From Leptospira biflexa (GTDB taxonomy: Bacteria > Spirochaetota > Leptospiria > Turneriellales > DYLW01), in assembly GCA_020721865.1 (NCBI GenBank), contig DYLW01000002.1, positions 62,591 through 126,590 of the forward strand: DNA of 64,000 nucleotides, in the 5' to 3' direction. The notes beneath the pieces are model-generated. The model was not told the origin of the DNA, did no database searches, and worked only from the letters and a program-made list of their open reading frames with translations. The translations under genes were made by a program, and so were the position numbers. Within the stretch, counting starts at the first letter, position 1; each line of letters begins with the position of its first letter. Of the stretch, positions 28,927-48,707 are shown one piece after another.

Positions 28927-28997
28927 AGCGGGCGATGGGACTCGAACCCACTCTAAAAGCTTGGAAGGCTTTTGTGCTACCGTTACACCACGCCCGC
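28927..28997 (-). tRNA. tRNA-Gly (anticodon UCC), CCA not encoded
   Basis: The reverse complement GCGGGCGTGGTGTAACGGTAGCACAAAAGCCTTCCAAGCTTTTAGAGTGGGTTCGAGTCCCATCGCCCGCT folds by hand into a cloverleaf. It has a 7 bp acceptor, a 4 bp D stem, a 5 bp anticodon stem with loop CUUCCAA, and a T arm GTGGG-TTCGAGT-CCCAT. Confidence 0.9.
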
Positions 28998-39126: not shown

Positions 39127-40102
39127 TTATATCCGATGGTATGTTTTATCAAATTTTTCGGAAACAAAAGCAAGGGAGGGTGGATATGGATTCAGGATCC
39201 CTGGCGACTCAGATATGGTTCGTGAAACCGGACGATCCACTGCCGGAGTATATTTTTTAATGTGTCCAGACCGGTCTTACCTTGGCGGTACATTTCCAAT
39301 TGTTCCATGAATAGATTTTTTTCTTCTTTATCGATATCCTTTTGAAATAACCGGCCATGTGCTCCATAGCGTTAATCATATTTTTATGAGAATACGTCCG
39401 ATGAAAAATTTTCAGCACAAGATGATAATAATTGCGTATAACATTCCTGGGCTAGTCACCATCCATATTAGCGGTGATTTTTCCCAATTCCCCTGCCAGC
39501 TTCTGGTTGTATGCCAAAAATAAATATTTATGATTAGAGTGAAAATCCACCAGGTCCTTCATGGCCTGGCTTTGCAGTACCTTTCGGAATCGCCGATGGG
39601 TGAAAACCTGGATCAGAAAATGGTCATAAATTTTTTCATTCCGGAGCCTGTCCTCATCTTCAATGGCCAAGTGGGAAAAATCCCGGATAATCCTGTCCGC
39701 AAAAAGACCGCGTCCCTTCTTATGTAAGGAGGAAGATTTGGGATTATCCGGATATACTTTCACTGCGGAGGGTCCACAGGACGGGGAACCGGATTTCAAA
39801 ATGAACCCATCCACAGACTGATTCAGGATATTAGAGACAAAATACCCGGAGAAATGATTCATTGCGTCCGTATGGTCAATCCCTTCCTCCGGAGAGACCA
39901 GAGAATAAAAGTCTGTATTTTTTTTCTGCACCAGACGGATGGGAGCTCGTGGCACTCCCAACCCAATGGCCACTTCCGGGCAAACGGGAATGAAATGGAT
40001 CTCTTCTTTCATGGCCGCCACTGCCGGGCTCCGAATAATCCCCCCGTTATACCGGAAAGATTCCATCTCAATACAGGAACTGATGACCACAACCGGTTTC
40101 AT
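39127..40102 (-). pseudogene. YbgA-like DUF523 (TudS-type Fe-S) plus DUF1722 gene, disrupted by an in-frame TAG and two frameshifts
   Basis: The intact part (39455..40102) has the Cys triad SSC / VCPE / SPSCG and FHSNHKYLFLAYNQKLAGELG. After TAG at 39452-39454 the same frame continues to NAMEHMAGYFK. A -1 shift at the T-run 39340-39343 then gives KDIDKEEKNLFMEQLEMYRQGKTGLDTLKNILRQWIVRFHEPYLSRQ. A second shift near 39198-39203 gives ILNPYPPSLAF. Each piece is collinear with the E. coli YbgA C-terminus as I recall it. Confidence 0.7.
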
Positions 40103-40106
40103 AGAA

Positions 40107-41681
40107 TTAATAGTCCATACTTTTCCAACCCTGCAGATATTCATGGAAGACAGTGGGCCGGTTAAAAGAAGTCACATATTTTTTGGGATGAATTTCGTCT
40201 TTAGAAAAAATACGGGATCTCTCCCATACTGGTATGGAGAAATACTGGTAATTCCCTTTTTCTATTATGGCCGATTTGTTTTTTAGAGAGCATTTTTCCG
40301 GGATGGCCATATTGTAACCCCACTGGCCAAAGGACGGAACAAAAACATGATAGGGAATAACCTCCGGAAAAACCTCTTTCATTGTATAGTGTATATTCCA
40401 GAATGCCTCCCCCGCAAACAGCGGAGACGTGGATTGAGTCACCACTATGCCCCCCGGAGCTAATCTTTTCTGGAGAATACGGTAAAATTCACGGGAGTAA
40501 AGCCGGGCAAGCACTTCGTCATGAGGGTCAGGAAAATCTGCGATAATGATATCATAAAGGCCTCCCGGATTCCGCATGAACTGAAAGGCGTCCATGATAT
40601 GCACATGTACCCGTGGATTTCTTACCGCATCCCGGTTGATCATCCGGAAGCCGGGGTGGTTCCGGGCAAGATTCACCATATCGGCATCCAGCTCCACTAG
40701 GTCAATAGATTGAATAAAATCAAACTGGAGAAGGGATGCCAGGGCCAGCCCGTCCCCACCGCCCAGAACCGCTACTTTTTGTGGCCTATCCCTATGACAG
40801 AATACCGCCGGCAATACCAGCATTTCATGGTAGCGGTATTCATCCGTTGTGGAAAACTGGAGGGAACCATCCAGATACAGCCGGAAATCATTGCGGTTCC
40901 GGGTGAGCACAATCCGCTGGAACTGCGTCTGCCCGGAATACACAATATCATCTTCGTAAAGACGCTGCTCCAGAGTCCGTTCAATGACATCCCCGTAAAA
41001 TATCATTCCCAGCATTCCGGCTATGGCCAAGGCGGGCATCCAGACTATGTGTTTTATCCGATGGGGGGGAAGAAGATTAAAGACCAGAATGAGTGCCACA
41101 ACGGAATTGGCTATCCCAATCACCAGGCTGGTCGTTAACCTCCCCAAAAAAGGATACATGACCAGTGGGAATAAAAGACTGCCCGCCAGTCCACCTAAAT
41201 AATCCAGAGAAAGCACATTGGACAGAATATCTTTCAGATCCCCGTACTCTTTTAAAATCCGCGTGATCAGGGGGATTTCCAGACCCACCAGAGTCCCAAT
41301 GAGAACCAGAAAAAAGATGTGCAGATAATAGAACAATTCAGAGATACTGAAAAAATAATAAATAATGAAAACAGAAATCCCGCCTGTCACCCCCAGGAGG
41401 ACCTCCACAACCACAAAAACACGCACCAGATCTTTTTGGAAAAACCGGGACAGATATGACCCCAACCCCATAGAGCTCAGAAAAAACCCAATAGTGAGTG
41501 AATACTGCAAAACAGGATTCCCGGCAAGATAAGACGCCAGAGAACCCAGAATCAGTTCATAAATAATCCCGCAAAGGGAAAGAACAAATACAGAAAAAAG
41601 CAATAAGCCGGGACTCCCGGCTTTTGGATGCTTTTTTTCTCTATTCCCGTTATTTGCCCAACCGGGAGCGGTTTGCTGCAA
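40107..41681 (-). CDS. Polytopic-membrane polyamine aminopropyltransferase (spermidine/spermine synthase fold)
   Basis: About 7 N-terminal TM helices, then VAVLGGGDGLALASLL, IDLVELDADMV, HIMDAFQF and DIIIADFPDP. Confidence 0.8.
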   Translation of the reverse strand: MQQTAPGWANNGNREKKHPKAGSPGLLLFSVFVLSLCGIIYELILGSLASYLAGNPVLQYSLTIGFFLSSMGLGSYLSRFFQKDLVRVFVVVEVLLGVTGGISVFIIYYFFSISELFYYLHIFFLVLIGTLVGLEIPLITRILKEYGDLKDILSNVLSLDYLGGLAGSLLFPLVMYPFLGRLTTSLVIGIANSVVALILVFNLLPPHRIKHIVWMPALAIAGMLGMIFYGDVIERTLEQRLYEDDIVYSGQTQFQRIVLTRNRNDFRLYLDGSLQFSTTDEYRYHEMLVLPAVFCHRDRPQKVAVLGGGDGLALASLLQFDFIQSIDLVELDADMVNLARNHPGFRMINRDAVRNPRVHVHIMDAFQFMRNPGGLYDIIIADFPDPHDEVLARLYSREFYRILQKRLAPGGIVVTQSTSPLFAGEAFWNIHYTMKEVFPEVIPYHVFVPSFGQWGYNMAIPEKCSLKNKSAIIEKGNYQYFSIPVWERSRIFSKDEIHPKKYVTSFNRPTVFHEYLQGWKSMDY

Positions 41682-41951
41682 TTACCGGGAAATTTCCTGG
41701 CTTTGTGCAGGAGAAGAAGATTTTGTTGCCGATGGGGATACAATTACGGACGCAACAATAATGGATATCCCCAAAATCACTGCACCAATAATAATTCCCA
41801 GAGAAATATTCTGATCCTCTTCAATCTCCTTTTTCACTGAAAAAGGTGTTACCAGATTAACCAGAAAAAACCCCAACGCCATCAAAATTACTCCCACCAG
41901 GGAATAAATCACCGTATCCAGAATTCCAACTCCTAAAGCTGCTATATCCAT
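41682..41951 (-). CDS. DUF350-family small membrane protein
   Basis: 89 aa with two hydrophobic helix pairs (VIYSLVGVILMALGFFLVNLVTPF / ISLGIIIGAVILGISIIVASVI). Its stop abuts the aminopropyltransferase start. Confidence 0.7.
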   Translation of the reverse strand: MDIAALGVGILDTVIYSLVGVILMALGFFLVNLVTPFSVKKEIEEDQNISLGIIIGAVILGISIIVASVIVSPSATKSSSPAQSQEISR

Positions 41952-41988
41952 TTTCTCCTCCGTTATTTTATTCTAAATTCAAGACTAT

Positions 41989-42177
41989 TTATTTTCCCGT
42001 GCGAAAGCTACCGGATCTGTGTGCTCCATAAATCATGCTTCCCGTCCTCACTGATTTTCTGATTTCGGCCTGCTTTTTCACATACTGCGGTCCGATGTGC
42101 GGATACCCCACATGCTGGTTGGAAAGCACAAACGCACCTCCAAAAACCAAGGCAGATATAATTATGCTGCGGATCAT
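41989..42177 (-). CDS. Small single-pass membrane protein (hypothetical)
   Basis: 62 aa with an N-terminal TM segment IIISALVFGGAFVL and a basic tail. Fits the operon spacing. A competing overlapping frame exists at 42008..42190. Confidence 0.35.
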   Translation of the reverse strand: MIRSIIISALVFGGAFVLSNQHVGYPHIGPQYVKKQAEIRKSVRTGSMIYGAHRSGSFRTGK

Positions 42178-42207
42178 TGTATTTCTCCATTAATTTTATT
42201 TGCGGTA

Positions 42208-43614
42208 TTACTCATCGTCATCCTCATCATCGTCATCTTTTTTTGCACTGGAATTCCTCAATCCGCCATCCAGATACAGCATCACACCCAGCACCAGGCT
42301 TGCCAGGAGATAATACCAGGAACTATGTGTTTCACTTGTCACGATGGGGATCCAGTTATCCTTTTGGGGATTTTTACTGAAAATCTGCTGGTACAGATAA
42401 TAATCACCCGGATCATCCATAACCGCAAGTTCACTGGAAAACGTGGTACTCTCTGTCCATGGCCCCTCCGAATCCCTTCCGCTTTCATGCCAGAAGTCTT
42501 CCTGGAAGGAATAATTCTCCACCACTTTTTCCAACGTATCAATATCACCCAAATAATTATTCAAAAGAGTGGCATTTTCCTGAGTGATGGGTTTTCCAAA
42601 TTCCTTTGCCAGTAAATCCGCTTTGATGAGATACACTTTGGACGCCACCCAGTCATTGTTCAGATGCTGGATTTTCTGATCCACGAACAGGTCAAATCCA
42701 TAAAGCTGGCTTTTGCGTTTTAAGGCCACCGGCCCATGCAGAATACCTCCAGAATAAAAATTTCCGTTTTTTTCCACCTGTACTTTATTTATTTCCAGAA
42801 TAATTTTCTGTGATGGAGCGGGCAAACCCTTATCAAAGAAATTTACCCCAACAAAAAAGATAAAACTCAACGCAAGGGCTGCCCCGTACACCAGTGCCCG
42901 GGTTTTTCCTTTTTTTTGTGCGTCTCCCATTTCTTTGAGATGAGCCACTTTGTCTGCGGAAACATTGAAAGCGGTAACCACCTCTTCATAAGAATAAAAA
43001 TCGCCCTTTGTTATGGAAATTTCGGATTCCGTTTGCTCCACGGTGTACTGGTTCTTGCCGATGGCAAAATCATAGAGCTGCATCCCCTCCCCAATTTGGG
43101 GAATCCAGGGAAGCTCTCCATCAAAATCGGCAATCCTTCCCACAAATCCGGTATCTTCCCGGGAAATGCTTTTTCCGTTGAACTCAATCACATCGTCCGA
43201 TGAGTATAAATCCAGACTTTCCGGAACATGCTCCTGATACAGATAATAACCGGCCTTGCCGTCTTCTGCCTCCACCAGATAACCAAACCAGCCCTCTGCG
43301 GATAGTAAAACCCATTCATCCCATGGATATGGTTCGGTGTCCTCCTCATCCTGGTAGCGGAGCCGCCCCACTATCTCAAATTCCATTCCCCGGAGCGTTC
43401 CCTTGGTTCCCAACTGGAATAATAGGCCGGAGTTATCGGTAAAAAGCTCGTGGAAATAATGGTAGTATTCCGGGGTTTTGGGGTCATATTCCGCACCGCA
43501 GGAATTACACTTGGCTACGTTTATCTTCTCCCCGTCCTCTTCCCGATATGTTTTTTTGATATCATTGGAGCCACAGGCTGTGCACTCCATTTTAATAACT
43601 TTTTCTGTGGCCAT
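42208..43614 (-). CDS. Zn-ribbon / DUF4178 membrane protein with an acidic C-terminal tail
   Basis: CTACGS...CNSCGA ribbon and a DUF4178-like core (GMEFEIVGRLRYQ...PWDEWVLL, DFDGELPW). TM helices at about aa 245-265 and 440-455. The tail is KKDDDDEDDDE. Confidence 0.7.
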   Translation of the reverse strand: MATEKVIKMECTACGSNDIKKTYREEDGEKINVAKCNSCGAEYDPKTPEYYHYFHELFTDNSGLLFQLGTKGTLRGMEFEIVGRLRYQDEEDTEPYPWDEWVLLSAEGWFGYLVEAEDGKAGYYLYQEHVPESLDLYSSDDVIEFNGKSISREDTGFVGRIADFDGELPWIPQIGEGMQLYDFAIGKNQYTVEQTESEISITKGDFYSYEEVVTAFNVSADKVAHLKEMGDAQKKGKTRALVYGAALALSFIFFVGVNFFDKGLPAPSQKIILEINKVQVEKNGNFYSGGILHGPVALKRKSQLYGFDLFVDQKIQHLNNDWVASKVYLIKADLLAKEFGKPITQENATLLNNYLGDIDTLEKVVENYSFQEDFWHESGRDSEGPWTESTTFSSELAVMDDPGDYYLYQQIFSKNPQKDNWIPIVTSETHSSWYYLLASLVLGVMLYLDGGLRNSSAKKDDDDEDDDE

Positions 43615-43616
43615 AA

Positions 43617-44219
43617 TTACCGCACCTCAATATCCCGGCGCAGAAGCACCCGCCCGGAAAACAACTCTACTTCGTCTTCCGAATATTCAATGGAAATCTT
43701 CTTCCCTTCCGATATTCCCTCAATATAGGAAACCTTCGTTCCCGGCTCCAGATAAAAGGAGAGTTCTCCCTCTCCACCCTCAATTTCGGCATCCCCTTTT
43801 TCTTTGACCATGACCTTTTTCCCTCCCAAGATAAAAATCATACCCGGCTTGAGACTGGCCACGGCGGAAACGTCCACCGCTTCCTCCAGATTTGTATACA
43901 GGGTGTATGTCCCTTCGTCCTCCGCGAACCAGGAAGGCTGGCCGTCGTAATCCAGAAACCACTCGTCAAAGTGCCCTCCGGAATACTTATACCGCATAAA
44001 ACCCAACGCAGAAAAGGATTTCCCCAAAATGGTGCCGGATGCCCCCACCTTGAAAATGGACGGAACCACGGCCAGCTTGGGATATTTTCCCTGCTCATTG
44101 AGTCCGCCTTCTTCCTGGATTTTCATGTGGGTTCCACAATAGTCACAGACAATGACTTTACTGAACCGGTTTTTTACCGCTACCGGAGCTCCGCAGGACG
44201 TACAGGTGTAATCTGCCAT
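43617..44219 (-). CDS. Zn-ribbon / DUF4178 protein (soluble paralogue)
   Basis: CTSCGA...CDYCGT ribbon, then GKSFSALGFMRYKYSGGHFDEWFLDYDGQPSWF. A 2 bp gap to the downstream paralogue. Confidence 0.7.
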   Translation of the reverse strand: MADYTCTSCGAPVAVKNRFSKVIVCDYCGTHMKIQEEGGLNEQGKYPKLAVVPSIFKVGASGTILGKSFSALGFMRYKYSGGHFDEWFLDYDGQPSWFAEDEGTYTLYTNLEEAVDVSAVASLKPGMIFILGGKKVMVKEKGDAEIEGGEGELSFYLEPGTKVSYIEGISEGKKISIEYSEDEVELFSGRVLLRRDIEVR

Positions 44220-44239
44220 AATTTTTCCTTTTTTGTGGT

Positions 44240-45247
44240 TTACATAGAAGCTAATATTTCATTTTTCTTGGTGTCATATTCCTGCTGGGAAATCAAACCG
44301 CCATCCAGCATCTGCTTCAGCTTCTGCAACTTGGCCATGGGATCATTGGCCGGTGGTGCCGCCTGGGCTCCCGGCTGTTGCATACCCGGATTCATCATAT
44401 TTCCCATCATGGCCCCCATCTGGTTACCCATGGAAAAGCCCATGCCTGCTCCCATCATGCCTCCGGCCATACCTTCATTTCCGGCAGCCTTTTCCATTGT
44501 GTCAAATGTCCGCCGCTTATCATAATCACTGCCCATTATTTTCATTTCTGCTTTATCTGCCAGAATTTTCTTGAGACGCTTAACGGTTTCATCTTCTTCT
44601 GGAATATTAATGGACTGGACATTGAATTTGACCAGCTCTAATTGGAATTCATGGAATTCATCCTGTATCTTGTTTTTTCCGGCCTCTCCGATTTCATCCA
44701 AATATGCTGTCAGCTTGAGGGCAGAGACATTCTGTTTGATCATGAATTCAGAGATTAAGTCCTGCAGGCGGGTCATAATAATCTGATCCCGGAGGGTTTT
44801 TGCAATATCTTCCGTGGTCTTGGCCTGCCAGCTACCAATGGCCATCAGAAGAAATTCTTTGGGATCTTTTAACTTGATGGAATAACTGCCAAATGCCCGT
44901 ACCGGTATGGACAAATTAAATTCCGGATCCATGATCTGGATGGGCTGGGGAGTTCCCCACTTTAAATCTGGAATAATGGTATTATTTAGAAAGAAAATCT
45001 CTGCCGGGAAAGGGGATTTCCCACCAAAAGGCAGATTCACCAATTTTTCCAGAATCGGAATATTCTTGCTTTCCAGAGTGTGCCTTCCAGGACCCAACGC
45101 ATCGGCCAATTTGCCCTCTTTCATGAAAAACGCAATCTGGTGCTCCCGGACAATGAGCTGTGCACCCATTACCACATCGCCTTCCGGAAAACGGTAAAGA
45201 ATTTCTCCCTCTTTATTCTGCCAGTCCACAACATCAATCAATGCCAT
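44240..45247 (-). CDS. SPFH/Band-7 domain protein of the YdjI type with a C-terminal SHOCT-like motif
   Basis: MALIDVVDW...ILYRFPEG...GAQLIVREHQIAFFMKEGK is typical of the virion-core-like SPFH family. A Met/Gly-rich linker follows, then the C-terminal LQKLKQMLDGGLISQQEYDTKKNEIL. GGAGGG lies upstream of the ATG. Confidence 0.8.
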   Translation of the reverse strand: MALIDVVDWQNKEGEILYRFPEGDVVMGAQLIVREHQIAFFMKEGKLADALGPGRHTLESKNIPILEKLVNLPFGGKSPFPAEIFFLNNTIIPDLKWGTPQPIQIMDPEFNLSIPVRAFGSYSIKLKDPKEFLLMAIGSWQAKTTEDIAKTLRDQIIMTRLQDLISEFMIKQNVSALKLTAYLDEIGEAGKNKIQDEFHEFQLELVKFNVQSINIPEEDETVKRLKKILADKAEMKIMGSDYDKRRTFDTMEKAAGNEGMAGGMMGAGMGFSMGNQMGAMMGNMMNPGMQQPGAQAAPPANDPMAKLQKLKQMLDGGLISQQEYDTKKNEILASM

Positions 45248-45419
45248 CGCTACCCTCCATGAAAAATATTAGAAGTACAAGTCCAAGTTTTGCTTTGATT
45301 GTCAATCGGAAAAAAAGTTTTTGGCGTATATTAATTCGTTGTTAATATCCCGCTGGTCAATATTATTGTGGAAAAAGGTATGTAAGATAAGCGTTTAATC
45401 TATCCGGAATCCACTGATT

Positions 45420-48400
45420 TTATTCGGGATTTTTGAAAAGAGACAAAATTTCTTCCCTGGTCAGCTTTTTCAGAAAACTTTCTTCGGAAGAGACAAATGT
45501 TTTATAGAGTTCCATTTTATCCTTCTGCAATTCCATAATTTTCTCCTCCACACTGTCTTTTGTGATGAATCTATAAGCAAAAACGTTTTTATCCTGCCCA
45601 ATGCGGTGTGTCCGGTCAATAGCCTGTTTCTCCACAGCAGGGTTCCACCATGGGTCCAGGATAAATACATAATCCGCTTCTGTGAGGTTAATGCCCACCC
45701 CCCCGGCCTTTAGACTGATCAGGAATACCTGTAGATTTTTATCCTGCTGAAAATTCTCAATGGCCATTTTTCTCTTCTGGGGAGAGAGCGATCCATCCAG
45801 GTATGCATAGGATATCCCCCTTTCTGCGAGGGCTTTTTCCGTGATTTTCAGCATTTTCACGAACTGAGAGAATACCAGAAGTTTGTGATTTTCTGTCACC
45901 GCTTCCTCCAGCATCTCCATCATACGGTTGAATTTTCCGGATGGTACGGATAGATACCGATCATCCACAAGGCCGGGATGGACAGCAATCTGGCGGGTAC
46001 GCAACAGGGCTTCCAGAATCCCGGCCAAAAGCTGTGTGCCCATTTTATCCTCCAGCTTTTTGGAAAGATCTTCATAGTATTGTCCGGAGTAAGCAAGATA
46101 TATTTCTCTTTGCTGCTCTTCCATTTCACTATATATATTGATTTCTTCCTTTGCCGGTAAATCCTTGGCCACATCCTCTTTTTTTCTCCGCAGGATAAAA
46201 GGATGGATAATCTTCTGAAGCTCTCTTGTTTTGCTACCATCCTGGTATTTCTGTATGGGGTTTCCATAGACTTTGCGAAACCAGTTCAGTGACCCCAGAA
46301 TCCCCCGGTTTACCAGATTCATTTGTGCCCAGAGTTCAAAGATATTATTTTCCACCGGCGTACCTGTCATGGAAATTCTATAAGAGGCAGGAATATCCAT
46401 GATTGCTTTATATGCCTTTGTATGGGCATTTTTCACATACTGGCTTTCATCCAGAATCAAAAAATCAAAATTGAACGTCTGGAAAACATCTGCATCCATC
46501 CGGAGTGTCTGGTAACTGACCAGAATCAGATCATAATTGGAAAAATAATCGTTGCTTTTCTTTCTTTGATAGCCATGATAAGAAAATGCCTTCAGAGAGG
46601 GAGTGAATTTTTCTATTTCATTCCGCCAATTAAACATAGTGCTCAAAGGCAACACAATCATAGATGTTCCCAATTGCCCTTTGTCCTGCAGAGATTTAAG
46701 AAGAGAAAGCATTTGCAGCGTTTTTCCCAATCCCATATCATCTGCCAGAATCCCGCCCAAGCCATATTCTCGCAGAAAATTCAACCAATTCAGGCCTTCC
46801 TGCTGGTAGCGGCGCAACATTGTGTTCGCGATATTGGGAGGAGGTATTTTTTCTATGGTTTGGAAATTCTTTATTTTTTCATAGATGCGAAGTCTTTCTA
46901 CCAACTGGGAAGGGAAGGTGATGCCGGGCTTTTGGGATATCTCTTCCAATGAGGCGAAGTGCCCTTCATGAACCTGGAACCCTTCCTGGGTTCGCACAGA
47001 CTTACCGATGTATTTTCGCAAAAAATTAATGTCTTCTTTGGAAAGGATCATCCAGCCCGATTTAGTTGTAACAATAGAATTGTACTCAAGGTCGTGTCCC
47101 TCAATACTATTCAGGAGGGTCTTGATCTCCTCTGCAGATATCTTCTTCTTTTCCTCATCTTCTCCAGAAATATTCACGGAAAACCAGTTTTTATCATAGC
47201 GGACATTATAGGAAAGTTGGACTCTTTTTACTGCGGATGGTTTTTTATAGATGCGAATATAATGACCGCTGGATAATATCTCTTCACCAAATTTTGCAAG
47301 AAAAGACGCCTCGTTGGGATAATAATCAAAGAATTTGCTGTGATTGGGACCATAAAGCCTGTCTCTATCACTTCCCTCTCTGTTCCAATAATGATCAAAG
47401 ATTTTTTTCTCAAATTCAAAATCACGGAGAGTAATTATACCGGTAACTTTTTTACCCTTTGCATTTTCTTTCCGGAAAAAATTCCTTGTTTCTTCATCCA
47501 AAGCGGCTATTTCCTGTCCGTCATAGGAAAAAATCAAACGCACACCCACCATGCCCATATAGTCAGATTCATTTTTTTCAAATAATTCTAAAATCACTTG
47601 TGGAGTGCCCGTCTCCATTTTGTATGTCATGGGTTTATAATCCAATATCAATGCATTGGAATTATGCTTTTTGACCCAATTCTGCATGGTCTCCAGTTCC
47701 CGTTTGCTACGAATAACCGGATCTTCCATCAATTCAGAAAGAACCAGAAGGATGGATGCATCTTTACAGAAATAATAATAAATAGTATTTTCCTTATAGG
47801 GGATGAAGACCAGAAAATCGCCGGAAATACCATGCCGAAAAGTATCCCCGGTGTTTCTCACTGTATAGGAAGCGTCATTATCCAACTTGCAGTGAAACAC
47901 GGTTTCTGCCTGCATCATGGAATCCTCATTCAGGAAAAAATCAAAATCCAGACCTATGCTGGATACTTTTTCCATGGTATAGAAATTTTCATCTTCAAAG
48001 GAGAAAATCTTACGAATGCCCGCTTCCAGGAGAAAGGGAAAGATTTCAAAAAGGTCTGCTTTTCCACCCACGGCAAGAACCCGGGGAAGAAGCATTTGCT
48101 CTGTGGTGTCCAGAGAAAAGGTGTATCGGGATATATTTTTTGGAGTGACCATTATCCCGCGATTCCAGGAATGCTCTTTTTCCCGAATCAGGAATTGGAC
48201 GGAATACGTTATTTTCTGGCTGTTCCCCCATTGGCCGTATTTCAAGCCAAGCTGCATGACCATTTTTTCCTCTTGAGATTTATTTTTTGTCATCTCCGGA
48301 TCCAGAAGCAGGGCCTTGAGGCGGTCATCATTTTCGAACATAGAAAAGGGCAGATCGTCCAACCCAATCTCCCCTTCTGGGATTTTGAATTTCTGCGGGG

Positions 48401-48707
48401 TCTCTGGTTTTTTATTTTCCCCGGGTTTGACATGGGTATACACATAATCCGCATAAACGGTGATTACGTGCGGACAATAGTTTCGGGAAGAGCAGGTGCA
48501 GGTGAATTTCTCAATAGTATCTCTTTCTGTCAGCTTTATGGTGACATGATTACTGGTTTTTCCTATTCCTTTTACAGTGGCAATAACCAGATTATCGCGA
48601 GGGATAACTTCCAACCCACCGCTCACATAGTAATTACTCACAGCATGTTCAAACTTGCTCATGCCGATGACTTTTTTAATAAAATGGGTTGAATCGCTAT
48701 ACGCCAC
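45420..48707 (-). CDS. SNF2-family helicase with an N-terminal SWIM zinc finger
   Basis: SWIM motif CTCSSRNYCPH. Motif I ILADDMGLGKTLQ, motif II LILDESQYVKN, and helicase-C LISLKAGGVGINLT...DPWWNPAVEKQAIDRTHRIGQ. The track start is GTG 48707; an alternative ATG lies at 48662. Confidence 0.9.
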   Translation of the reverse strand: MAYSDSTHFIKKVIGMSKFEHAVSNYYVSGGLEVIPRDNLVIATVKGIGKTSNHVTIKLTERDTIEKFTCTCSSRNYCPHVITVYADYVYTHVKPGENKKPETPQKFKIPEGEIGLDDLPFSMFENDDRLKALLLDPEMTKNKSQEEKMVMQLGLKYGQWGNSQKITYSVQFLIREKEHSWNRGIMVTPKNISRYTFSLDTTEQMLLPRVLAVGGKADLFEIFPFLLEAGIRKIFSFEDENFYTMEKVSSIGLDFDFFLNEDSMMQAETVFHCKLDNDASYTVRNTGDTFRHGISGDFLVFIPYKENTIYYYFCKDASILLVLSELMEDPVIRSKRELETMQNWVKKHNSNALILDYKPMTYKMETGTPQVILELFEKNESDYMGMVGVRLIFSYDGQEIAALDEETRNFFRKENAKGKKVTGIITLRDFEFEKKIFDHYWNREGSDRDRLYGPNHSKFFDYYPNEASFLAKFGEEILSSGHYIRIYKKPSAVKRVQLSYNVRYDKNWFSVNISGEDEEKKKISAEEIKTLLNSIEGHDLEYNSIVTTKSGWMILSKEDINFLRKYIGKSVRTQEGFQVHEGHFASLEEISQKPGITFPSQLVERLRIYEKIKNFQTIEKIPPPNIANTMLRRYQQEGLNWLNFLREYGLGGILADDMGLGKTLQMLSLLKSLQDKGQLGTSMIVLPLSTMFNWRNEIEKFTPSLKAFSYHGYQRKKSNDYFSNYDLILVSYQTLRMDADVFQTFNFDFLILDESQYVKNAHTKAYKAIMDIPASYRISMTGTPVENNIFELWAQMNLVNRGILGSLNWFRKVYGNPIQKYQDGSKTRELQKIIHPFILRRKKEDVAKDLPAKEEINIYSEMEEQQREIYLAYSGQYYEDLSKKLEDKMGTQLLAGILEALLRTRQIAVHPGLVDDRYLSVPSGKFNRMMEMLEEAVTENHKLLVFSQFVKMLKITEKALAERGISYAYLDGSLSPQKRKMAIENFQQDKNLQVFLISLKAGGVGINLTEADYVFILDPWWNPAVEKQAIDRTHRIGQDKNVFAYRFITKDSVEEKIMELQKDKMELYKTFVSSEESFLKKLTREEILSLFKNPE

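Follow-up and report, generated by a model that had tools for sequence, protein, structure and literature searches.

An SPFH-led membrane aminopropyltransferase cassette of Leptospira biflexa and a small lysine-terminated protein as its candidate acceptor

What is a polyamine-type enzyme with seven transmembrane (TM) helices doing in one gene array with an SPFH protein, two zinc-ribbon proteins, a DUF350 protein and a very small membrane protein? This question is raised by positions 40,107 to 45,247 of a 64,000-nucleotide stretch of Leptospira biflexa DNA (GenBank assembly GCA_020721865.1, contig DYLW01000002.1, positions 62,591 to 126,590 of the forward strand), the whole of which is called the 64-kb window here. 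Six genes, g1 to g6, lie there in order on the minus strand from 45247 to 40107: g1 (SPFH, 44240–45247, 335 aa), g2 (DUF4178, 43617–44219, 200 aa), g3 (DUF4178 with two TM helices, 42208–43614, 468 aa), g4 (41989–42177, 62 aa), g5 (DUF350, 41682–41951, 89 aa) and g6 (aminopropyltransferase, 40107–41681, 524 aa, or 498 aa from an alternative start at 41603). The open reading frame (ORF) map gives successive gaps of 20, 2, 30, 37 and 0 nt, in agreement with a preliminary description of this DNA, made from the sequence alone, which saw in these genes a tight, operon-like array. We find that the locus is very probably an intact copy of a widespread envelope cassette, whose parts are a Zn-ribbon/DUF4178 adaptor with an outward-facing beta-sandwich, a membrane-anchored protein that ends in lysine, DUF350, and a seven-TM (7-TM) aminopropyltransferase that uses decarboxylated S-adenosylmethionine (dcSAM); SPFH leads it here as in about a quarter of its relatives, in the place that PspA and CesT/Tir hold in a few others. 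What the cassette does can be proposed more tentatively: it may be an extracytoplasmic protein-modification machine, in which dcSAM would pass through the acidic 7-TM domain to an outward-facing enzyme that builds a spermidine-like or longer chain on the C-terminal Lys of the anchor protein (here the 62-aa peptide, in other lineages a lipoprotein or DUF4247 protein).

Identification of the cassette is based on related loci, which carry L numbers below. A GTDB scan, one genome per species, with an alignment of four aminopropyltransferases as query yielded at least 597 relatives in many phyla, and a protein search gave 7,902 matches. The loci of the best 80 of the at least 597 relatives were kept, for a census total of 84 related loci (82 assessable for the lysine-terminated protein), and their ORFs were searched with hidden Markov models (HMMs) built and iterated in this analysis; counts refer to the contiguous same-strand cassette. 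DUF350 is present in 66/84 loci (a g5-type gene lies directly upstream of the aminopropyltransferase gene in 66/84), DUF4178 in 64/84, the beta-sandwich domain of g3 (for which we coin the name D2C) in 60/84, an amine oxidase in 50/84 and an S-adenosylmethionine (AdoMet, SAM) decarboxylase (AdoMetDC) in 44/84. SPFH is the leader in 22/84, PspA is found in the cassette in 2/84 (L061 and L065) and within 10 kb in 5/84, and SPFH and PspA are together in one cassette in 0/84. These counts and the lack of co-occurrence define the core as DUF4178 (with or without D2C), DUF350 and the 7-TM enzyme (7TM-SpeE), and SPFH or PspA (with or without CesT/Tir) as alternative, optional leaders; the K-terminated anchor protein described below also belongs to the core.

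The same gene order recurs at 36–66% protein identity with unrelated flanks in several phyla. Contigs that encode full-length g3 relatives, which are Spirochaetota/Leptospirales according to database names and the genome scan, carry between unrelated flanks a Band_7_1 gene, a DUF4178 gene of ~200 aa, another of ~465 aa, a 61–64-aa ORF, DUF350 and the aminopropyltransferase, so that the six genes are indeed co-conserved, with different flanks, in other genomes of Spirochaetota, where the nearest relatives are. The preliminary description had read the locus as a merger of the Bacillus subtilis ydj and Escherichia coli yjf neighbourhoods; it belongs instead to one widespread cassette family with an optional SPFH or PspA leader. 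SPFH-led members occur in Spirochaetota, Acidobacteriota, Burkholderiales, Oligoflexia and Novosphingobium. The earlier remark that PspA/IM30 is missing was borne out, since the 64-kb window encodes none, and neither do the immediate surroundings of the most closely related complete versions of the locus: an HMM made from E. coli PspA, YjfJ and five locus homologues found none in the window and none in any SPFH-led locus (10 kb), and PF04012 is not in the precomputed Pfam tables of L001, L003, L005, L090 and L092. AdoMetDC and an amine oxidase exported by the twin-arginine (Tat) route belong to most relatives' cassettes, and neither is in the window copy; tblastn and HMM searches found neither gene in the whole 64-kb window, and neither is present in the cassettes of the five other spirochaete loci in the census. 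Other spirochaete cassettes have an SPFH protein whose tail is three Zn ribbons, whereas that of the window has SHOCT, and two extra genes precede it, which encode a Com_YlbF-like protein and a 175-aa helical protein (MQPDL...; L003 7283–8248, L005 7125–8161, L090 5142–6193, L092 5081–6168). Homologues of these two proteins were not found in the window. The 175-aa protein matches no Pfam family and was considered as a hidden PspA, which was rejected after hhalign gave a probability of 1.1% against a PspA alignment. The window cassette is a lineage-specific variant without the donor-making and oxidase genes and with a SHOCT-tailed SPFH protein.

The smallest gene gives the most direct indication of a substrate. 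g4 encodes a TM anchor at the N-terminus and then a tail that is basic, rich in Gly/Ser/Arg, and ends in ...SFRTGK (codon of the C-terminal Lys at 41992–41994, minus strand). It has no Pfam or NCBIfam family, and the 62-aa TM peptide of the preliminary description is nonetheless a real gene, with 43–54% identity in independent genomes. Among 1.84 billion representatives, phmmer detected 13 further independent homologues, 58–65 aa long, and all of them (13/13) end in GK. In nearly every locus the space from the DUF4178/D2C gene to DUF350 contains an ORF on the same strand whose product has a hydrophobic segment at its N-terminus; the K-terminated partners are highly divergent in sequence, and at their end the Lys is preceded by Gly or His. 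For an unbiased test, the longest same-strand ORF was taken from each of the 54 loci whose two flanking genes are 120 nt or more apart; 49/54 of these ORFs, which lie between the flanking genes, end in [GH]K, and the background of such endings in the same loci is 30/8364 ORFs (0.36%). A TM protein or lipoprotein ending in [G/H]-Lys was found in 77/82 assessable loci, a count that includes proteins with a less marked hydrophobic segment and those encoded at other places in the locus. A logo of 73 compiled sequences has K at position −1 in 73/73 and, at position −2, G in 41 and H in 32. Typical C-termini are ...FR[GST]GK in Spirochaetota, ...RY[FI]GGK in Acidobacteriota, ...RFYHK in Bacteroidota, ...GGGPSSGK in Chloroflexi, ...SSGGGxSSGK in Firmicutes (in versions of 180–250 aa), ...GGGGHK in Burkholderiales and ...GGGLGGGK in PspA-type loci. 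One long version (L017) has a Pfam match to DUF4247 that runs through its last residue. The Bacteroidota proteins (e.g., L025 9565–9747, L038, L051) have a conserved CxC motif (...GNRICDCETTEKY...) just past the TM segment that is absent in other phyla. We regard g4 as a candidate aminopropyl acceptor. A search of the available literature found no report of aminopropylation of lysine or of proteins in bacteria; chemistry of this kind does occur in nature, since diatom silaffins carry propyleneimine chains on lysine epsilon-amines (PMC3806462).

The enzyme that would act on this tail is well defined. g6 matches Pfam Spermine_synth (4.7e-36) and scores 557.2 bits (cut-off 472) with the NCBIfam equivalog NF002956 (PRK03612, 'polyamine aminopropyltransferase'), aa 16–521 aligning with positions 11–520 of the 522-position model. 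The earlier view of it as a ~7-TM protein with GGGDG, ELD and DFPDP stands: its AlphaFold2 (AF2) model (pLDDT 88.5) has seven TM helices and then a Rossmann domain. The 7-TM domain spans aa 24–228 (41612–40998, minus strand) and the catalytic domain aa 232–465 (40988–40287, minus strand), where YHE, GGGDG, ELD, DA and DFPDP do not vary among the homologues of two alignments (of 4 and of 50 sequences) and align with the same motifs of thermospermine synthase 6bq2 (2.8e-34), which is, with the Thermus enzyme 1uir, the best solved relative of this domain. The Asp of GGGDG in spermidine synthases selects dcSAM over SAM, and because it is present and invariant here, dcSAM is taken to be the donor of g6. 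Within the TM helices, E42, E93, E135 and D160 are ~90% conserved and are candidates for a path that a cation such as dcSAM might take. The neighbouring g5 matches DUF350/YjfL (PF03994; 4.9e-15, 56.2 bits, cut-off 26) over half of the 133-position model, and is thus a two-TM, half-size member of 89 aa.

On which side of the membrane would enzyme and tail meet? Lipoboxes (LLGSC, LLGC, AFSGC, LVAGC) or a Sec-type signal are seen in several of the K-terminated partners, and DUF4247 is the family of Mycobacterium tuberculosis Rv2599, a predicted extracellular protein with a signal peptide/TM segment; the tail of the K-terminated protein is therefore most likely outside the cytoplasm. The partner amine oxidase genes, which lie downstream of the aminopropyltransferase gene in L016–L087, encode a Tat motif at the start of 41/52 proteins, often followed by a lipobox Cys, so that the cassette's 'polyamine oxidase' is predicted to be a periplasmic lipoprotein. 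In the charge profile of 84 homologues of the enzyme itself, Lys and Arg gather at the N-terminus and in loops 2, 4 and 6, loops 1, 3 and 5 are short, and the stretch past TM7 is acidic. This profile and the seven TM helices of the model suggest that the catalytic domain of g6 lies outside the membrane as well.

The remaining proteins could hold these parts together. All of the domain assignments made at the outset (SPFH, SHOCT, DUF4178 twice, DUF350 and aminopropyltransferase) were upheld by profile searches above curated cut-offs; the CxxC Zn ribbons of g2 and g3 and, in an AF2 model, the two TM helices of g3 were also seen. The g3 protein matches DUF4178 (PF13785) at 3.9e-12 with 46.9 bits (cut-off 25), with an NCBIfam CxxC match at 7e-07. 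It consists of a CxxC...CxxC ribbon (aa 11–39), DUF4178 (aa 67–205, 43416–43000), TM1 (about aa 238–258), D2C (aa 270–429, 42807–42328, predicted to be outside the membrane) and TM2 (aa 433–455) followed by an acidic tail, ...KKDDDDEDDDE, all on the minus strand. Its AF2 model (pLDDT 83.7) has the ribbon, a beta-rich DUF4178 domain, a long TM helix, the 160-residue beta-sandwich and a second TM helix, and the flanks of the two helices suggest that the ribbon, DUF4178 and the acidic tail are inside and D2C outside. Foldseek returned generic jelly-roll matches only, and the D2C domain exists as a separate 2-TM protein in PspA-type loci. Full-length relatives of g3 are rare (18–20 among 5.8e9 proteins), and a profile search for more gained only four sequences. 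Most g3-type relatives (L016–L087, e.g., L025 8323–9564 and L060 8260–9582) have after TM2 the conserved, predicted cytoplasmic motif FExxRWxESD[YF]SPY and then an acidic end (...DDDE); the window g3 lacks the motif and has kept the acidic run alone.

The g2 protein is soluble, with a CxxC Zn ribbon (aa 5–32) and DUF4178 (aa 57–192; PF13785, 1.2e-09, 38.9 bits, cut-off 25), and is 59–63% identical to its orthologues in L003 and L005. g1 is soluble too: its SPFH domain (Band_7_1, PF13421; 4.9e-52, 177.1 bits, cut-off 24; aa 18–220, 45196–44588, minus strand, aligned with profile positions 2–200 of 211) is right at the N-terminus without an N-terminal TM anchor, and a Gly/Met/Ala-rich segment (aa 256–293, 44482–44369, minus strand) and a C-terminal accessory module, SHOCT (PF09851; 5.4e-08, 32.8 bits, cut-off 27; aa 306–332, 44332–44252, minus strand), follow. 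SPFH orthologues in the census share a Gly/Ala/Met-rich segment and have tails of SHOCT, one or three Zn ribbons, or GYF. A sequence search with the SPFH protein against solved structures gave no match.

The mechanism that we propose is tentative and is built from sequences and predicted structures. If the 7-TM domain has its N-terminus and its loops of even number in the cytoplasm, the catalytic domain would lie on the outer face of the cytoplasmic membrane, and dcSAM made in the cytoplasm would reach it via the 7-TM domain with its four conserved acidic residues. The acceptor there would be no free diamine but the epsilon-amine of the small protein's C-terminal Lys, onto which the enzyme would transfer at least one aminopropyl group. 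Since the side chain of lysine is, like putrescine, an amine with four carbons, this would yield a protein-bound analogue of spermidine, a membrane-tethered, spermidine-like polycation that might stabilise the envelope or signal its state. The D2C sandwich of g3 would hold the g4 tail outside the membrane, and the cytoplasmic Zn-ribbon/DUF4178 domains of g2 and g3 would link the complex to the SPFH assembly, a cytoplasmic scaffold that could confine or stabilise the complex in the membrane. Where it is present, the amine oxidase (Tat-exported in most lineages) would trim or activate the product; this spirochaete lineage has no amine oxidase attached to the cassette, and dcSAM would have to be supplied through a gene located elsewhere in the genome. 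The identity of the cassette and this mechanism, taken together, are given a probability of about 0.4.

Several points weigh against this proposal. The connection between the Lys and the enzyme is one that we infer from gene sequences, and the outward orientation was derived only from the positive-inside rule and the helix count of a predicted structure, in which TM7 is short (aa 214–228) and could be peripheral. We know of no precedent for a dcSAM-using domain outside the cytoplasm. The g4 tail is strongly basic, about +9 in the window copy, and a strongly basic short tail of this kind normally argues for a cytoplasmic location. The roles given to the DUF4178 and D2C folds are guesses, since both gave only generic jelly-roll matches. 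About 70% of the related cassettes have no SPFH protein, which makes it an accessory part and not part of the core. No AdoMetDC is encoded within the 64-kb window, so that a donor supply in this genome is only presumed.

Other explanations have to be set against it. All of the catalytic motifs of polyamine aminopropyltransferases are intact in g6, its best solved relatives are thermospermine and triamine synthases, it passes the 'polyamine aminopropyltransferase' equivalog cut-off, and the AdoMetDC and flavin amine oxidase of its relatives are both classical polyamine enzymes; these features would suit a cassette that makes a free polyamine locally (spermidine, thermospermine or a related compound) and exports it through the 7-TM domain to coat or protect the envelope, for which the acidic membrane residues are equally fitting, while SPFH and DUF4178 only organise the enzyme. 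We consider this unlikely, since it leaves the co-encoded anchor protein with its invariant C-terminal Lys (77/82 loci) unexplained and offers no reason to make and oxidise the same free amine in one operon. In addition, a passage of PMC12803844, citing Li et al. 2019, states that bacterial fusions of a membrane domain to an aminopropyltransferase (APT) were found by experiment to have no part in spermidine or spermine synthesis. The preliminary description had left two functions open, of which aminopropyl transfer to an unknown acceptor fits better, and localised polyamine synthesis is disfavoured by that passage.

The SPFH protein could also indicate a stress module of the phage shock protein type, in which it recruits a PspA/IM30 encoded elsewhere and the aminopropyltransferase does no more than modulate membrane charge. 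g1 is of the Band_7_1 (YdjI) type, and B. subtilis YdjI is said to recruit PspA. PspA occupies the same cassette position in the distant relatives L061 and L065, and Band-7 and PspA are treated as one membrane-dynamics toolkit by Ravi et al. (PMC11237479). Nonetheless, this appears quite improbable: neither the 64-kb window nor 10 kb around any SPFH-led cassette has a PspA gene, the hhalign comparison above shows no likeness to PspA in the 175-aa helical protein encoded in other spirochaete cassettes, and the mutual exclusion of SPFH and PspA in the census looks like replacement, not cooperation. That g6 is a non-catalytic sensor of polyamines or dcSAM, signalling through DUF4178 and SPFH, is very improbable, although polyamine monitoring was suggested by Ravi et al. 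(PMC11237479) and the window copy has no adjacent AdoMetDC; its catalytic and cofactor-binding residues are invariant over 50–84 homologues, which would not be expected of a pseudo-enzyme, and the donor-making enzyme adjoins in most relatives. Chance juxtaposition of unrelated membrane genes can be practically dismissed, being already refuted by the conserved order between unrelated flanks in several phyla described above.

How does the proposed modification of g4 by g6 stand in relation to known systems? The gene combination, for which the preliminary description knew of no experimental characterisation, is not new and had been noticed by comparative genomics: Ravi et al. (2024, mSystems; PMC11237479) described an operon in which the CesT/Tir-PspA pair stands with DUF4178, DUF350, a 7TM-spermine-synthase-like protein and a lipoprotein (Ctha_1186 plus low complexity). 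They also described variants of it that lack PspA, a mycobacterial one among them, and a variant in which Band-7, '2TM' and SHOCT replace the PspA pair and which has AdoMetDC and polyamine oxidase in the operon. They proposed that the system monitors polyamines or aminopropylates other substrates. Their '2TM' is probably the Gly/Ala/Met-rich segment seen in g1. The window cassette resembles the Band-7/SHOCT variant in having a Band-7 protein with a hydrophobic Gly-rich segment and SHOCT in the place of CesT/Tir-PspA, beside DUF350 and the polyamine-type enzyme; acidobacterial, burkholderial and other census loci fit that description, including AdoMetDC and amine oxidase, whereas the window copy and its spirochaete relatives lack both in the cassette. 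PMC11237479 gives one sentence to this variant and mentions neither a K-terminated small protein nor the orientation of the enzyme. The points that seem new here are the invariant C-terminal [G/H]-Lys of the small gene product, the outward placement predicted for the catalytic domain, alongside the Tat signal of the partner amine oxidase in relatives, and the four conserved acidic residues inside the 7-TM domain.

The Shewanella oneidensis operon SO_3761-3767 (Table S3 of Ravi et al.), with the order lipoprotein (Ctha_1186+low-complexity), DUF350, 7TM-spermine-synthase-like, CesT/Tir, PspA and DUF4178, shares with the window the 7-TM aminopropyltransferase, DUF350, DUF4178 and an exported protein with a low-complexity tail, which in PspA-type and proteobacterial census loci ends in ...GK. 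It differs in that its leader is CesT/Tir-PspA and not SPFH, it has one DUF4178 protein, and the D2C-like domain and K-terminated tail are on other polypeptides. M. tuberculosis Rv2597-Rv2601 (DUF4178, DUF2617, DUF4247, DUF350, SpeE) is likewise PspA-free with 7TM-SpeE, DUF350 and DUF4178, and its DUF4247 protein (Rv2599) is exported, the census partner in L017 being a DUF4247 match; it has no SPFH and contains DUF2617. B. subtilis pspA-ydjGHI has, like the window, a Zn-ribbon membrane protein beside an SPFH protein of the Band_7_1 type that lacks a TM segment. However, the window has neither PspA nor the TPM-domain YdjH, its Zn-ribbon proteins have DUF4178 and not the NTF2-like domain of YdjG (two Zn ribbons, NTF2-like and TM), and the ydj operon has no aminopropyltransferase. 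Neither a TPM nor a PspA family was reported for any cassette gene, so that only Band_7_1 is common to the two.

E. coli yjfIJKLMC contains DUF350 (YjfL), the exported YjfM with a Gly/Ser/Arg-rich tail, and the polyamine-conjugating YjfC; in contrast to the window enzyme, YjfC is a cytoplasmic ATP-grasp ligase, PspA (YjfJ), DUF2170 and DUF2491 are present, and there is no SPFH or DUF4178. HMMs from E. coli YjfI, YjfK, YjfM and YjfC gave 0 matches in the window and all loci, and DUF350 alone is common to both systems. YjfM (DUF1190; L088 8388–9026) has a Gly/Ser/Arg/Tyr-rich tail like that of g4 in composition, but it ends in ...GHWGG. The current annotation of YjfC is peptide-spermidine ligase. 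An analogy with YjfC acting on YjfM was considered and kept as a loose parallel only, since YjfM is a predicted exported protein and YjfC a cytoplasmic one.

Cassettes with the 7-TM aminopropyltransferase, DUF350 and DUF4178 are very widespread, with at least 597 relatives in the GTDB scan, and are present in pathogens such as M. tuberculosis; their enzyme family is reported, in the passage of PMC12803844 referred to above, not to make the usual polyamines. As a gene combination the window adds little; comparison with its relatives gives a concrete hypothesis about substrate (the small protein with C-terminal Lys) and site (the outer face of the cytoplasmic membrane). If it is true, a new post-translational modification would be defined, the first bacterial protein aminopropylation and the first periplasmic dcSAM-dependent reaction. 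The attachment of SPFH or PspA scaffolds to polyamine-type enzymes in envelope stress systems would then have an explanation, and the substrate behind the reported 'polyamine-independent role of AdoMet decarboxylase' would be identified.

The signals around the cassette and its flanks are as follows. The GGAGGG Shine-Dalgarno sequence attributed to the leading gene is present at 45253–45258 (minus strand), 5 nt before the g1 ATG at 45247, and g4 (GGAG) and g5 (GGAGGAG) have separate ones. The start of g6 is ambiguous between TTG 41681 (524 aa, gap 0) and TTG 41603 (498 aa, gap 78 nt); gene callers choose the shorter form, the NCBIfam model alignment begins at residue 16 of the long form, and a database protein 91% identical to g6 is 523 aa long. 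Between the two candidate starts there is an 8-bp GC-rich hairpin (AAGCCGGGAGTCCCGGCTT) followed by a T-run (41595–41623, minus strand), which could be an attenuator or plain coding sequence. Promoter-like and terminator-like matches around the cassette are not enriched (17 vs 11.6±3.4 and 12 vs 8.0±2.8 in shuffled sequences, respectively).

A seventh ORF begins 4 nt beyond g6 if it is read from the Met at 40102. This gene (39130–40102, minus strand) is a TudS/DUF523 (2-thiouracil desulfurase-like) domain fused to DUF1722 (Pfam), and the DUF1722 part is broken twice, by a stop at 39452 that lies in frame and by an A-run frameshift, with remnants in two other frames. It looks like a real pseudogene, since the independent assemblies L001 and L002 call the same truncated product. 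The preliminary description was thus right about its decay; the gene is no member of the conserved cassette and is not found with it elsewhere.

On the other side, 172 nt of intergenic region separate g1 from an unrelated SNF2-family helicase gene directly upstream of the cassette (45420–48707, minus strand, 1095 aa), which has strong PADLOC matches to DpdE (5.7e-141) and ZorD. This helicase has no adjacent partner defence genes and is not beside the cassette in relatives; PADLOC defence models matched none of g1–g5 and gave only a generic methyltransferase-fold match for g6 (mad2, 4.9e-18), and a defence-system reading was rejected on these grounds. Rfam has no family in or near the cassette, and its sole match in the 64-kb window is a tRNA gene at 28927–28997 (minus strand).

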